DNA of 62,514 bases, counting the filler, from Globobulimina sp. (Eukaryota): assembly GCA_003354225.1 (NCBI GenBank). It is 31 parts of 31 records of this genome, joined end to end, with 100 filler letters (N's around TTAATTAATTAA, not from the genome) between each part and the next. Parts side by side here need not be neighbours in the genome. Positions count along the whole stretch, not along the records: positions 1 to 1,921 come from PIVH01010574.1; 30 more parts are not named here. The stretch is one strand, 5' to 3'. The notes beneath the pieces are model-generated. The model was given only the letters and a program-made list of their open reading frames with translations. It was not told where the DNA came from and did not search any database. Positions 3 to 48,659 of the stretch are shown here, in pieces (position 1 is the first letter of the stretch; each line of letters starts with the position of its first letter). The position numbers and the translations under genes are program-made.

Positions 3-1919
3 TAATGTCACAGCTCCGATTAATACAAATCCCAATGCAATCCATGAGATTATAAATGCCAAATCAATGTTAAATAAATATTTATCATCATTTGCGATCA
101 CAATGTAACCATATTGATAATCGTCGGAATTGTTTAATGCCAACGGCTGTATCAAACGCAAATCATTACCCTCCATATCCATGCTCGGTATCATATTCAC
201 ATAAACCATTTCAAATGAAAAGATGGAGACAGAATATCCTTTCTCTGCATCAAAATGCGTGAAACTCTCTTGGAATTCACCATTTATACCCAGTTGTTTT
301 ATATACTTGGCAGTGGATACCACAATTTCTTCGTTTGTTTGCTCGCCATCCTGCAGATATATATCATGCGTAGTCGATGCAATGATGTCTAATTTCGGCG
401 TGGCGATCATAATGACAGTGCCTGTTGGTATCACTATATCCTTTGACAACACAGTATCACTCAAACTATCCACTCTAATTTCGCACAGAAATATGACCAA
501 AGTACCATAAAACTCAACTGCTGCAACCAACGACATTCCAAAATAGCCTTCGGAAAATAAATAGGGTTCGGTCCATATTGCTTTATTTTTATTCTCCCTC
601 GCTAATGTATACCACGCTCGTGACATAACGTCATAATTATTGCAATCTGCTTGCAAGTTATTTATGTACTCAATGGACGCTCCATAGCCATACGCTTTGC
701 TGCAGCTGCCGTTGAAATTCCATATATCCATACTATTGTTGCCACGATATGCGATTAGTAAACTATTATCATCGCCGTTGTATAGACCCAGACTGAAAAC
801 AGATTCCGTGTATGGAATATTACTGAAAGAAACCAGAAAGTCATCGTATTTTCCCTCTGTTTGTGATGCATTGATATGCAAATCACCGCTGAATAAAGCA
901 CCAATGGCCATGGATATTATCATTTGCGGCACCCAGAACTCATCGATTATGGAATGGCACGCACGCTCTCCCAGCGGGTCTATAGTTAAATGAATGTAAT
1001 CTGTTTGCTGCGATAATCCATGCCAATAAAACCAAATAATTATAAACAACGCGCAGCATAGCAAAGGTATGACAGTTAAACATAATAAAGGAATGTATAT
1101 TGTGTCCAGCGATGATACAACAAAGCTGCAACAAAACCTCCCGGCGCAGGTTTCGCCGCATCCACTCTGTATTGCGATATGTTTCTGTTTGGTCCCAAGC
1201 AGATTCAGCTGAGACGTGATGGCTTTGATTGAATTCTTTGCTTTGATTTTGCTTTCTTGCTCTGGCAATAATATGCTTTTATTTTCTTTTTTGTTATTAC
1301 TATTCTCAGCCATTAATTGCTGAACATAGTCATTGCTGGCTTTGTCAGGAGATACTAAAAAATCAAAATAACATTTTTGATACATTTCCCTGAGCAAATC
1401 GTCAGATATCAACACTGCTAAATAGTTATCAATTTTATTAAAAAAATAAACATCCATTTTCCAATATTCTTTGCTTCCGTCCATAAGGTTTGCCCGTAAG
1501 AACCTTACCACGTCGGCAATAATGGCACAATCCTGATAAAACTGCTGGAAAATATGTTGCTCACTGTCTAAGACACCATCGATGATCTCATGCAGCACGT
1601 CAATGGACAAGTGATATTGCGATATAATGTGTGACTGTATACGCGTTTTATCCTTAAAATACACAAATTTTGCTGCATCCGCAGATAACTCCCATCTATG
1701 CTGCGCTGTGTGTGCACTTTTCAAGCGATCAAAATCAGCCTCAATAAAGTTATTATTATTCAGCATGGAACATTCAATCAATAATTCGATTTGTTTGCTG
1801 CCCATTTTACATAGTTCTGCTCCGGAAATCCTATATTGCCAAAACACAGACGCTAAATGCCGCAGTTCCTCGCACGTTTCGAAAAATGCAACAACATTCT
1901 GCCACTTCCAGGTCTGCAT
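3..1919 (-). CDS. SAM-like domain - TM - dCache_1 sensor domain - TM membrane receptor (partial at both ends; absent from the ORF track)
   Basis: Manual translation gives an uninterrupted frame across the contig. MQTWKWQNVVAFFETCEELRHLASVFWQYRISGAELCKMG is SAM-like. TM1 is IYIPLLCLTVIPLLCCALFIIIWFYW. The Cache motif is YDVMSRAWYTLARENKNKAIWTEPYLFSEGYFGMSLVAAV. TM2 is FIISWIALGFVLIGAVTL. Confidence 0.8.
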   Translation of the reverse strand, partial: MQTWKWQNVVAFFETCEELRHLASVFWQYRISGAELCKMGSKQIELLIECSMLNNNNFIEADFDRLKSAHTAQHRWELSADAAKFVYFKDKTRIQSHIISQYHLSIDVLHEIIDGVLDSEQHIFQQFYQDCAIIADVVRFLRANLMDGSKEYWKMDVYFFNKIDNYLAVLISDDLLREMYQKCYFDFLVSPDKASNDYVQQLMAENSNNKKENKSILLPEQESKIKAKNSIKAITSQLNLLGTKQKHIAIQSGCGETCAGRFCCSFVVSSLDTIYIPLLCLTVIPLLCCALFIIIWFYWHGLSQQTDYIHLTIDPLGERACHSIIDEFWVPQMIISMAIGALFSGDLHINASQTEGKYDDFLVSFSNIPYTESVFSLGLYNGDDNSLLIAYRGNNSMDIWNFNGSCSKAYGYGASIEYINNLQADCNNYDVMSRAWYTLARENKNKAIWTEPYLFSEGYFGMSLVAAVEFYGTLVIFLCEIRVDSLSDTVLSKDIVIPTGTVIMIATPKLDIIASTTHDIYLQDGEQTNEEIVVSTAKYIKQLGINGEFQESFTHFDAEKGYSVSIFSFEMVYVNMIPSMDMEGNDLRLIQPLALNNSDDYQYGYIVIANDDKYLFNIDLAFIISWIALGFVLIGAVTL

Positions 1920-6293: not shown

Positions 6294-7984
6294 ATGTCGC
6301 CTGTGTTAATCATTCTAATAATCATAACATGTTTAATCACAACTAATCACAGCCAACTAATCACACTGCAACAATTTGGCTCTGCCACATCAAGTTAAAC
6401 AATCGATTTTGATCAAACGAATGCTAAATTAACACTAAATTAATTCAAACGAAAACAAAAGAATATGTTATACTAATCAGTGACGCACCATTTAATTGGT
6501 TTGATGCCAGAATCCACTGCACCAATACAGGATACGTAATGTCCCAAATTAACACCACAACGCAACACCAGGAAATTGTAGGCATCATTGCATCCATATC
6601 AATAACAACTACATCATGCTGGATGGGCGCATATGGCCTTTTTACTACGAATACGACTATTGAGTGGTACTGGGAGTATGAACCCTTTCGTCAATTATGG
6701 GATGAACAGCTTGCAGCGCAGTATATGGTTGAGCCAAAATTTGGGATCGATAAAACTTTTATGCAGGGACTACTCATCAGAACTTCAGGTAAAAACGGTA
6801 ATGAAGCTTCATGGTCTTATGGCGACGCAGACATTGCATTTCAAAATGGTCCAAATGTAAGAAGCTGTGTCGTTTGTTTAAATAACACCAACTATCCACC
6901 GATAGCAACGACAGAACCAAGTAATGAACCAACATCATCACCAACGCTACAACCTATACGCACTCCAAGTATGTAATTATGTATATCCGATACACGGTTT
7001 ATTATTATATTTGTATCAAATGTTTGCAATATACATCGTTACGGCATATAGCTGCAACACCAACTGTTTCTCAAATAATAGCTACAACGACAAATAATCC
7101 GTCAATTTACCCAACAAATAACCCGTCAATTTACCCAACATTAATTCCGTCAATTCCGCCTAGTTTAAATCCAACACGTAACCCATCAAAATCACCATCA
7201 AAATCACCATCAATCTCACCATCAATATCACCAACCATAAGGCCAACAGTTTTACCAACAAAAAATCCGACAATTCCACCTACAAAACATCCAACTGTAC
7301 AACCAAGCAAATCACCTACGTTTAATCCGTCTGTATCACCTACACACAATCCGACCAATAATCCAACGCCAAATCCTACATTTACCCCAACAATATCACC
7401 AACCACACGGAAACCAACACCATCTCCATCAACAGATCCGACACAATCTCCGACCACCGACCCCACTCAAATTCCAACACAGCACCCAACCACTGACCCC
7501 ACTCAAATACCTACAAGTTTTGAGCATAAACTGTTTTTTATACATTTTTAAGCTAGGTTACTATGAAAGTTTTTTTTTACATAATGGCAGCGTTGCCAAC
7601 GCTTGTACCATCACTTGTACCCAGCACGGCGCCACCCATACAAGATTGGAGCAATATCGACGACAACATAGCAGAATTACAATTGGATTATTGGACAAAC
7701 CAAACATGTGACTGGGAAGCACTAAAATGTGGGCATTGTCTGGAAATTCTACGTATTGAAATACAGCAACATTACGCAGGAGAACCCGTGACCGCGCACG
7801 AAACTTTATTCCCTCAATACGACGCATACGAGCAATGTGACTGTGTAGGCGGCGTTGGAGAAGAAAGCAATAATACATTAACCATATACGGTACAAACAA
7901 CACAGCGACATTAACTTTTACAGTCAGCACAGCGGACTTGGACCCCGACGATATAACTTTGAACATCTCCAACTGGGCCTATTC
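6294..7984 (+). CDS. Secreted/surface C-type lectin domain protein with a Pro/Thr (xPTxxP) mucin-like stalk (3' partial)
   Basis: Signal peptide MSPVLIILIIITCLITTNHS; CTLD-like FNWFDARIHC...SCWMGA...WYW; phase-1 GT-AG introns 6394-6461, 6969-7051 and 7517-7590 join three ORF-track ORFs in frame. Confidence 0.75.
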
Positions 7985-46364: not shown

Positions 46365-46468
46365 NNNNNNNNNNNNNNNNNNNNNNNNNNNNNNNNNNNN
46401 NNNNNNNNTTAATTAATTAANNNNNNNNNNNNNNNNNNNNNNNNNNNNNNNNNNNNNNNNNNNNGCAA

Positions 46469-47359
46469 CTATAGGGTTGACCTGTCAACAGTGTTTGATA
46501 AGAACGATCTTACGCGTTGTAGCGCGTCGACGGACTCGGGACCACCTATCTTGGCAAATCCGTGAAAGCCGTGAATCATCGCAGATACGATGTCCAGTTC
46601 AACGTTCACGCCCTGTCTTAGTGCCTTGGAGGCGATGACCTTCGCGTGCGCGGATGTGGGATCAATTTCACCCGCTTGAAGAAGCAGTGGAGGTAGACCA
46701 GTAAAATCACCATAGACGGGTGATACTAGAGGGTTTTGCAAACGGTCTTTTCCGGCGTAATCAATGCCTCGCTGATGACTGTATGCTTGATGATACAATG
46801 GATCTTTCGCTTCGTTTTTTTCAGACAAATCAAACCAACCGCACAGACTAACACCGCAACCAGGTAAGTCAACATTATCATCGCGAAGCTTTAACAATGA
46901 AGCAATCACAAGACCACCACCGCAGGAGTCACCAATAAAGCCGATTGACTTTGCCGAATAACCTTCAGCAAGTAAGCCTATATAAGCATTGCAACAATCC
47001 TCCAGCGCCGCTGGAAAACGATGCTCGGGTAACAGCCGGTAGTCGACCATAATGACCCGTGCATCCAACAATTGCGACAACATTTCCCCATAAAATAAAA
47101 AGCCGTCGCCACCGGCGGCGATAAAGGCGCCGCCACGAAAGTACAATAGTGTTCGCGTTGTATCTTCTGCTATGTTAGCAGCCCGCAGTACAGCACAGCG
47201 TACGCCATTAAAAGGCTGCCAACTTAGTTCAGTGTCGTCCTTGATAGGATGGCCGTGTACGGCCTCCATTTTGTCCGTCGCCGTCTCAAGATCATCCTCT
47301 GGCAGCGTCAGTTGGCCGTCCAACAACGAGACAATATCCTGATAGAGTTGACTGGGCAT
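46469..47359 (-). CDS. Bacterial-type HSL-family esterase/lipase (Abhydrolase_3)
   Basis: YFRGGAF, VDYRLLPEHRFPAALED, GDSCGG, SPVYGDFTGLPPLLLQAG, MIHGF; no introns, visibly higher GC; probable start MPSQ at 47359 (alternative 47404). Confidence 0.88.
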   Translation of the reverse strand: MPSQLYQDIVSLLDGQLTLPEDDLETATDKMEAVHGHPIKDDTELSWQPFNGVRCAVLRAANIAEDTTRTLLYFRGGAFIAAGGDGFLFYGEMLSQLLDARVIMVDYRLLPEHRFPAALEDCCNAYIGLLAEGYSAKSIGFIGDSCGGGLVIASLLKLRDDNVDLPGCGVSLCGWFDLSEKNEAKDPLYHQAYSHQRGIDYAGKDRLQNPLVSPVYGDFTGLPPLLLQAGEIDPTSAHAKVIASKALRQGVNVELDIVSAMIHGFHGFAKIGGPESVDALQRVRSFLSNTVDRSTL

Positions 47360-47700
47360 TGGCTTCTCTGCGTGACGGTTTAATGATTTACAGTTCGTCG
47401 GCATAGGTGTTTTGAAGCCTTAAAAGGCCATTTTCAGGGGCAAAATTGACCCTGTAAGAAACAGCTGGCTCAGGAAACTCGTAGCTTTTGTTGCTTCCAA
47501 TAATCTTCCGGCCTTTCGCCTTAATCTCGAGCCTTTTATTGTAGCCTCAATAAATGATTTGTTCAAAACTGTGGCACCTATGCTTGACTTAACAATATTA
47601 ATCTGTGTCATGTAACTCATGGAAATAAAAACAAAATGATTGCTAATAAAATATTTTCCAAATAATCAACAATTTATTAGCGAATTATCAATTACCATAA

Positions 47701-47961
47701 GTGTCACAATATCCCTTATTTGGCAATAAATATCAGGAAAAATATAACCTTGGCAGCATTATAAAATTTCTGGCCAGAGAAAAATCTGACTTGGAAAAGC
47801 AGATTAAATATTTTCTTTTATGGATTAACAAGCTTCTGTCTTATTATCAAAAAGACCTTAAATCAGTCAATTATAAAAACATAAAAGACTTTCTGGCACT
47901 CTTGAATATGAAAATAATGAGGGATAGCAGCTTCGGTAAGCTTTTTTTCCACATCAGTTAA
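47701..47961 (+). pseudogene. Possible integrase N-terminal (SAM-like) remnant
   Basis: KFLAREK..LEKQIKYFLLWINKLLSY...IKDFLALL resembles the Y..W...F.......I..FL..L pattern of tyrosine recombinase N-domains; no catalytic domain. Confidence 0.3.
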
Positions 47962-48659
47962 ACATATCACAAACTGTTAATTAAAAACCTGATTTTAATA
48001 TTTCAGCTGATCTGTATCGACGTACTTCGATATCCACTTGCAGGTATTATGTTATAATCTTGAATATTCAGGTAGTTAAAAAGCCTGAGATACGGTTATC
48101 TGATCTGAGGTTTTGTCCAACCTGTACTATATTAAAGTAATCTGGTGGCGAGTCGTTCAGTGTGCCATCTGTGATTAAACGATCAATCCCAAGGCCGCTT
48201 TTTTTAATTTTTTTGCGGGTGGTATTCGCAAATACTACCACAGTGCCATCGCTACCAGTATAAAAATTAGAAACAATGCTATTACAGGATAAAGAAAAAT
48301 ACTGATAATTAATAAAGAAAAGCCGGCCAACAGAAAAAACATTCCTATGCTCATCGAACGTGTTCTCGCATTGAGCCGATCTTNNNNNNNNNNNNNNNNN
48401 NNNNNNNNNNNNNNNNNNNNNNNNNNNTTAATTAATTAANNNNNNNNNNNNNNNNNNNNNNNNNNNNNNNNNNNNNNNNNNNNTTTCATGCATGGTTTCA
48501 ACTTTTTTTATTGTTTTCTTTCTGTTTTCAACTTACTTTTAATGTTTTTTTCTTGTATATATATATATATATATATATATTCATAGCGCGTGATTCATTG
48601 AATTTAGAGTATACAAAAACTTTAAGTCGGAACTTTCATAAACTTTCGAAGCAAAGATC

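Follow-up and report, generated by a model that had tools for sequence, protein, structure and literature searches.

An open reading frame that spans contig C10574 of Globobulimina sp. (PIVH01010574.1 of assembly GCA_003354225.1, here G000) is a mid-gene fragment, the front half of a protein in which two dCache sensor domains are fused to a two-pore channel, and not a whole receptor. The contig fills positions 1–1921 of the window, by which we mean the whole stretch of 62,514 nucleotides that was analysed, and is its complete first contig. A sequence-only reading of the same DNA had taken the frame for a protist chemosensory receptor on a SAM scaffold; the eukaryotic origin and the sensor fold have stood up, and the stand-alone receptor has given way to the channel fusion found in the relatives. 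The best reading, which we hold to be moderately likely, is that of a Cache-regulated, probably Ca2+-permeable receptor-channel, whose gating we infer.

Continuation of the open frame in relatives and in the genome

As the sequence-only reading had stated, the minus strand is open across the whole contig, from 1919 to 3, with 639 codons free of stops (P0001, 639 amino acids); the longest stop-free run in 1000 shuffles was 163 codons.

3..1919, minus strand: open frame, an internal fragment of a SAM/double-dCache/two-repeat channel protein of about 2600 amino acids, open at both ends

Over all its 639 residues the product aligns with residues 406–1043 of P0005, a protein of Nonionella stella, at 52% identity. 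At the upstream side contig C25884 overlaps C10574 by 38 nucleotides (97% identity) and brings a 336-codon open frame that runs into C10574. Because this frame runs on, we take the Met at 1919 to be internal and not the protein start, and place the SAM domain some 400 amino acids into the protein and not at its N-terminus, where it had been supposed to lie.

The relatives indicate what follows beyond the contig. P0005 (EukProt), the closest full-length one, has 2597 amino acids; after the region of C10574 it carries a second module of a dCache between two transmembrane helices (TM-dCache-TM) and then a TPC-like pore of the order 6TM-EF-hand-6TM, with Ion_trans in two stretches (E 1.1e-17). Of 88 sequences, 62 belong to the family by profiles derived from its own members. 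All 18 members with at least 750 amino acids after the first dCache domain (Cache1) go on into a second one (Cache2) and channel repeat I, which agrees with the earlier view that the output domain lies beyond the contig. SAM, both Caches and both repeats stand on one chain in 10 members, and Ion_trans exceeds the Pfam cut-off in P0003, P0005, P0008, P0011, P0017, P0022, P0033, P0039, P0052 and P0057. No HAMP, MCP, kinase or cyclase domain of Pfam was found in the close family, no other output in any of the 18 long relatives, and no Pfam match to vWA in the full-length relatives.

The Globobulimina genome itself holds the same fusion, with the paralogues C373 and C200 as single-contig examples. 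Contigs C14510, C14521 and C24657 of this assembly (70 Mb in 48,370 contigs) tile the remainder of P0005 at 49–62% identity, C24657 overlapping C14521 exactly by 119 nucleotides. A paralogue count and a phylogeny had been proposed with the sequence-only reading as checks. Distinct Cache1 sequences stand on eight contigs of this genome. In separate domain trees P0005 is joined at a FastTree support of 1.0 by C14510, by C14521, and by C10574 with P0018. Beyond the region of C10574 the long relatives run on into the channel and P0018 into Cache2; P0018 bridges the gap, its identity being 65% with C10574 and 66% with the beginning of C14510. Within G000 neither DNA searches nor a protein search with P0018 found a contig bridging the 3′ end of C10574 to C14510. 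A public contig of 5.4 kb extends 4358 nucleotides past position 1; the orthologue would need about 4660. Judged from these sequences C10574 very probably continues into Cache2 and the channel like its relatives.

That C10574 itself holds no channel and that its 3′ end is unbridged would also fit a SAM-TM-dCache-TM receptor standing alone, whose output is a kinase, a cyclase or something else that is not a channel, or else a truncated decoy, and eukaryotic Cache kinases and cyclases do exist (PMC4822843). Given that the orthologue and P0018 go on into Cache2, that orthologous channel contigs are present in the same assembly and that all long-enough relatives lack another output, we regard such a receptor as very improbable.

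A bacterial contaminant or an amplification chimera can be regarded as effectively refuted, even though the assembly is fragmented and has apparent chimeric ends (the start of C4243 and the end of C200). Of 21 relatives that were looked up 13 are named, and all of these are entries in EukProt from the benthic foraminifera Nonionella stella and Bolivina argentea. In two paralogues the motif following the SAM domain is interrupted by GT-AG introns, of 62 and 76 nucleotides, and four public runs, which belong to three studies, cover the C10574 stretch colinearly with no joints. In the most divergent of them 27 of the 38 listed differences fall on third codon positions, with nine amino-acid changes and no stop among them. 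The eukaryotic origin assumed from the start is thus confirmed by the foraminiferan relatives and the paralogue introns. There is no RNA run among the public runs listed as holding the stretch. At window position 1883 all four runs covering the stretch have C, giving F13V, and the letter in the window may reflect an allele or a fault of the assembly.

In the relatives and paralogues, not on C10574, a single chain holds two 6TM repeats joined by an EF-hand linker, and in this the full-length relatives resemble the two-pore channels (Arabidopsis TPC1, PDB 5e1j/5dqq/7tde; animal TPC1–3). P0126, a distant member, is colinear with Arabidopsis TPC1 through repeat I and the EF-hands (1427–1752 against 156–494) and then repeat II. 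Unlike two-pore channels the family is longer at the N-terminus by about 1800 residues, in which SAM and two TM-dCache-TM modules lie, has Glu in both filters (S[TS][SGAQ]EN and [VIF]GEGW) and is nearer to Cav in repeat II, which scores higher against Cav than against TPC with sequence matches that are mixed between the two. Two-pore channels are dimeric cation channels of endolysosomes or vacuoles and have an Arg-rich S4 voltage sensor. This arginine series is largely lost in the family: it is absent from the orthologous contigs and from P0005, the S4 windows of C14521/C24657 and P0005 having one Arg each, and in the 13 and 12 rows scored the S4 windows have one to three basic residues. From its sequence the channel is probably Ca2+-permeable. 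The same genome has, as judged by eye, multi-repeat Cav-like fragments with Arg-rich S4 and a further TPC-like channel (C1501, C2264, C1335).

Six distant sequences (P0126, P0134, P0106, P0095, P0154 and P0015, the Caches of the last judged by eye) share the layout of a double TM-Cache-TM followed by a two-repeat channel, with no SAM detected; P0126, P0134 and P0095 pass the dCache_1 and Ion_trans cut-offs of Pfam together, and P0126 and P0134 have a stretch that by eye is like the FFNKIDNYL motif after the SAM domain. By their sequences these members suggest a range beyond the foraminifera. A search of the ESM Atlas with a distant full-length member returned no usable match. In P0006, P0007, P0009, P0010, P0011 and P0016, of the clade to which the orthologue belongs, the cytosolic linker between TM2 and TM3 has a short beta-rich segment with weak likeness to CAP-Gly (E 0.01–0.14), which may point to a link with the cytoskeleton.

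The Cache1 domain and its pocket

The part of the frame that would act as sensor consists of the following elements.

1032..1088, minus strand: TM1, amino acids 278–296 (hydropathy 2.84)
63..1031, minus strand: Cache1, a dCache domain, amino acids 297–619, extracytoplasmic and without vWA insert (AF2 model, fold and profile matches)
6..62, minus strand: TM2, amino acids 620–638, cut by the contig end (hydropathy 2.40; goes on in P0005 and P0018)

An AF2 model of amino acids 297–619, computed from a 21-row alignment, has a pLDDT of 80.2 and a pTM of 0.81 and shows the long N-terminal helix and the two PDC modules of a dCache between the transmembrane helices. Foldseek returned 125 matches in the PDB at E<=0.001, and VIA matched the model with TlpQ (Z 19.8, root-mean-square deviation 3.3 A, 244 residues aligned) and PctA (Z 17.2). 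A search with the family Cache1 profile found the Aeromonas dCache 7k5n (E 2.2e-8) and PctA (E 0.0016). The Cache domain between two transmembrane helices that had been read from the sequence was hence found again in the model; of the two means proposed for checking it, structure prediction gave the dCache fold and the dCache_1 model none (PF02743, cut-off 45 bits; P0126, P0134 and P0095 pass), MCP-like_PDC_1 reaching E 3.7e-4 in P0001, under the cut-off. When the own genome was searched with PF02743, the family was missed and four other loci were found; the two of these that were read look alpha2delta-like. The absence of a vWA domain was likewise correctly noted, W436 and Y453 being 17 amino acids apart. 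Near-invariant Cys406 and Cys426 and four N-glycosylation sequons in Cache1 fit an extracytoplasmic placement. We place the Caches outside or in a lumen and SAM, linkers and EF-hands in the cytosol, and with four transmembrane helices ahead of S1 this topology stays consistent.

The sequence-only reading had recognised the amino-acid motif of dCache_1 in this domain. Its residues are located as follows.

609..635, minus strand: first motif half, Y429, R434, W436 and Y437, aligned with YDPRSRPWY of PctA
555..563, minus strand: Y453 (PctA Y144 column) and the family-specific F455 (Asp in PctA), by profile alignment
480..482, minus strand: Glu480 (PctA D173 column), by profile alignment
468-470, minus strand: Asp484 (variable column), by profile alignment

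WTEPY was correctly placed at 561–575; YDVMSRAW lies at 612–635 and not at 600–635, with Y437 at 609–611. The carboxylate half YxxxxRxW (Y429, R434, W436) and Y453 are present as claimed, and the canonical Asp of the amino half, Y[x27-34]D, is not. Both Glu at +27 and Asp at +31 had been considered for the acidic position. The family string 'iflvei' aligns with 'VVGGDL' of PctA, which puts Glu480 in the D173 column. Asp484 as the motif acid is ruled out, as its column is variable and outside the D173 register.

Of 65 Cache1 rows, near-identical isoforms included, 58 span every one of these positions; among them the 480 column has Glu in 42/58 and Asp in 7/58, and the 484 column has Asp in only 11/58. 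Arg is kept in 50/58, Trp in 57/58, the second Tyr in 54/58 and the Phe two residues on in 54/58, so the pocket is conserved but variant; its residues are far better conserved than the remainder of the domain. The motif of Cache2 is complete in 17 of the 24 covered rows (26 in all), with an invariant Asp. In the N. stella orthologue Cache2 is canonical and Cache1 has lost the motif (R>Q, E>H). The likely partner Cache2 of C10574, on C14510, has lost Arg and the second Tyr (R>E and Y>H), and since it has done so the working pocket of the C10574 paralogue is probably Cache1. By these sequences the intact pocket appears to be swapped between orthologues, with Cache1 in the Globobulimina gene and Cache2 in that of N. 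stella. Because the motif ends in Glu and the N. stella Cache1 has lost it, we put forward amino-acid binding by Cache1 as a plausible but non-canonical hypothesis.

We also considered that the protein is a ligand-regulated channel whose Cache1 does not bind standard alpha-amino acids at all, taking another small acid, an amine or a betaine-like cue, or serving purely as the structural half of a pseudo-dimer. The prevalence of Glu over Asp, the Phe at +2 and the loss of the motif in the Cache1 of the orthologue would fit this, as would the top fold matches, which are the amine and quaternary-amine sensors TlpQ, PctD, MkcA and McpX (within about 3 Z of PctA). With the carboxylate-binding half Y-R-W intact we judge this quite unlikely. 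The amine motif dCache_1AM is defined by an unconserved Arg, hydrophobic M215 and S217 positions and an R103/D133 insert (PMC10589655); in C10574 the Arg is kept and Gly stands at the M215 position, as read off the PctA alignment only.

The proposed pairing of the two Caches and the proposed receptor-channel

When Cache1 and the likely Cache2 were modelled as a complex, the score was 0.72, compared with 0.35 for the best of three controls. The runs agree in at least 61% of contacts, the partner has a pLDDT of at least 72, and the interface lies mainly along the N-terminal stalk helices. Among microbial pairs 51 of 78 solved ones and 2 of 108 mismatched ones reach the score mark used; for eukaryotic pairs the corresponding figures are 39 of 65 and 2 of 126. 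The modelling thus supports a Cache1-Cache2 pseudo-dimer.

We propose the following layout: a cytosolic N-terminus with SAM, TM1-dCache1-TM2, a cytosolic linker, TM3-dCache2-TM4, a helical linker and 6TM-EF-hands-6TM. Relatives have this layout in one chain; on C10574 itself the pocket residues are present, and models show the SAM and dCache folds. Cache1 and Cache2 would pair by their stalk helices, reproducing within one chain the dimer of bacterial chemoreceptors, with TM1–4 forming a receptor-like bundle. A small ligand, likeliest an amino acid or a close analogue, would bind the distal pocket, facing the cell outside or the lumen of a food vacuole, and would move TM2/TM4 and, via the conserved linker before S1, open or tune the dimeric pore. 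The Glu-bearing filters would pass Ca2+ or other cations. The voltage charges being largely lost, the ligand and Ca2+ feedback through the EF-hands may replace voltage, and SAM may cluster channels or bind partners. More tentatively, as a serious possibility, we advance a new ligand-gated channel class, in which the four-helix transmembrane bundle of the dCache pseudo-dimer directly gates a voltage-insensitive, Ca2+-permeable two-pore channel and in which the working pocket is the Glu-type one of Cache1 in some paralogues and orthologues and the Asp-type one of Cache2 in others.

A number of points weigh against a Cache-regulated channel of this kind. Binding, current and localisation are predictions. 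C10574 is tied to the channel contigs by orthology and not by overlap, its 3′ end being unbridged in G000, and the overhanging public contig is known by its extent and not by its sequence. The chains of the complex were taken from unlinked contigs, the model cannot tell which member pairs, and since bacterial dCache homodimers are solved its pass may reflect likeness. The terminal residue of the motif in C10574 is Glu, if by a conservative change; the amino-acid motif is defined with Asp, and D173N costs PctA about 600-fold in binding (Gumerov et al., PMC8915833). The Glu-variant string 'WY Y E' is absent from the supplements of that paper, two of whose six files use this string format. To this are added the loss of the motif in the N. 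stella Cache1, the change Y437H in one run (X6) and the two to three basic residues that some paralogues retain in the S4-II window. Finally, where Caches meet channels in the literature their role is accessory: alpha2delta acts on trafficking (PMC12303104), and in pentameric channels they are extra domains (PMC549065).

This last point leads to an alternative in which the Caches are a built-in alpha2delta: they would serve folding, trafficking, adhesion or slow modulation, and the pore would be opened otherwise, by cytosolic Ca2+ via the EF-hands, by lipids or by tension. The dCache_1AA pocket of animal alpha2delta acts on channel trafficking (PMC8915833; PMC12303104), several members of the family have lost the motif in one or other Cache, and the EF-hands are retained. 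The Caches, however, are flanked by transmembrane helices like those of signalling receptors and are without the vWA domain that is called key to alpha2delta action (PMC12303104), their pocket residues are far better conserved than the rest of the domain, and the genome has separate ordinary alpha2delta-like genes of the vWA type. We consider this alternative unlikely. The separate genes, read by eye, are the alpha2delta/CACHD1-like C6296 and C15056, the former beginning like a signal peptide and containing YDPRFRPWY and a DxSxS stretch that resembles vWA.

With alpha2delta/CACHD1 the family shares two dCaches associated with a pore of the calcium-channel type and a motif kept in one or the other Cache by lineage (PMC8915833); it differs in having no vWA and no nested dCache, in that each Cache is flanked by transmembrane helices, and in being covalently part of the pore chain. 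Cache2 has an insert of 63–89 amino acids at the site of the alpha2delta vWA. Regarding this insert as a vWA remnant is unsupported, as the DxSxS pattern is present in 0 of the 8 rows printed. The bacterial dCache_1AA receptors (PctA/B/C, Mlp24/37, Tlp3 and the Aeromonas diguanylate cyclase sensor 7k5n) likewise have a dCache between two transmembrane helices, with the Y-R-W-Y..Y pocket of Cache1 in register. The family differs from them in Glu at the D173 position, in lacking a HAMP, MCP, kinase or cyclase output, in having two sensors per chain rather than a homodimer, and in the Cys pair and sequons. Prokaryotic pentameric ligand-gated channels with N-terminal MCP-N/Cache (Tasneem et al. 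2004, PMC549065) are also fusions of Cache with a channel and have a proposed chemotactic role. Their pore is unrelated, and their Cache precedes the channel's own ligand-binding domain (PMC549065), whereas in the family the Caches are the only ligand-binding domains found and a separate pair of transmembrane helices belongs to each.

To our knowledge the way in which amoeboid protists, foraminifera among them, convert chemical cues to calcium signals is largely unexplained, and a search on the subject found no paper that treats it by title or abstract. The family is a concrete candidate for this step, as soluble sensor domains are joined to a pore. Ionotropic glutamate receptors are a fusion of a bacterial-type ligand-binding module with a P-loop pore; their sensor fold and topology differ from those of the family, and we draw an analogy only and claim no homology. 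If the proposal is true, a voltage-gated-like pore family would join the pores gated by a fused bacterial sensor, protists would have an expanded ionotropic 'taste' repertoire, and the alpha2delta-Cav partnership would have a single-chain parallel.

Every eukaryotic dCache_1 protein is said to have a vWA insert (PMC8915833; PMC12303104), which the Cache-channel family contradicts. Eukaryotic Caches without vWA do have precedents, as Cache domains occur in plant and fungal histidine kinases and in a Naegleria cyclase (PMC4822843); the fusion with a channel is the new part. Dataset S3 of PMC8915833 has nine foraminiferan dCache proteins, as ids only. A Cache-TPC fusion was not found in the literature covered, with most subscription papers and bioRxiv supplements outside this coverage, and the term 'cache' occurs 0 times in PMC12749960 and PMC4795631. 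The architecture is undescribed and lacks a defining feature of each known family with which it was compared; its function we infer, and novelty as a class applies to the architecture and not to the gating. To this picture C10574 contributes the SAM-bearing front end, the family-wide Glu variant of the motif, the pocket swap between orthologues and the model of the Cache1-Cache2 pseudo-dimer.

The SAM-bearing front part and further observations

The cytosolic part of the frame ahead of TM1 comprises three regions.

1629..1919, minus strand: SAM domain, amino acids 1–97 (predicted model and VIA fold match; cytosolic by topology)
1350..1628, minus strand: conserved helical region, amino acids 98–190 (alignment consensus and helices in the model)
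1089..1349, minus strand: variable cytosolic linker, amino acids 191–277, with a Cys-rich end before TM1 (sequence and alignment)

The SAM-like segment of the sequence-only reading does have a SAM fold. In an AF2 model of amino acids 1–195 (pLDDT 78.5) the five helices of a SAM domain are present, and the best VIA match is the SAM domain of PHC3 (Z 9.1, root-mean-square deviation 1.3 A, 67 of 70 residues aligned), the matches listed being mostly SAM/PNT domains. About 28 residues of the region are not aligned to solved SAM domains, with an extra helix at about amino acids 60–72. The Pfam check suggested earlier gave only SAM_PNT at E 0.15, under the cut-off, and it was the fold search with the model that matched SAM domains. 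Foldseek returned nothing at E<=0.001 for the model, though SAM domains head its match list, and the ESM Atlas offered SAM clusters at 0.76 as a lead only. By family-built profiles SAM is found in 26 of the 29 members with long N-termini. The helical region that follows holds the family motif WKMDxxFFNKIDNYL, and the fold matches hardly extend into it. A DEP domain, placed after the SAM region and ahead of TM1, was noted in P0037, P0035, P0055, P0050, P0059 and P0012, with matches under or near the cut-off except in P0037.

Two of the paralogous contigs have unusual ends. The end of C200 (6510–7094) overlaps C24812 in inverted orientation, which makes it probable that the stop at 6537 arose in the assembly. 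In C4243 the Cache1 frame opens with an unrelated enzyme-like stretch (98–350), presumably resembling HMG-CoA lyase, and the join is probably chimeric.

The window (1–62514) is made up of 31 separate contigs of 1918–1921 bases each, with N spacers and the linker TTAATTAATTAA between them, and as its segments are separate contigs the neighbours of C10574 give no gene context. At 46465–48383 it has an open reading frame that by eye is alpha/beta-hydrolase-like and, with 42% GC, bacterial-looking.

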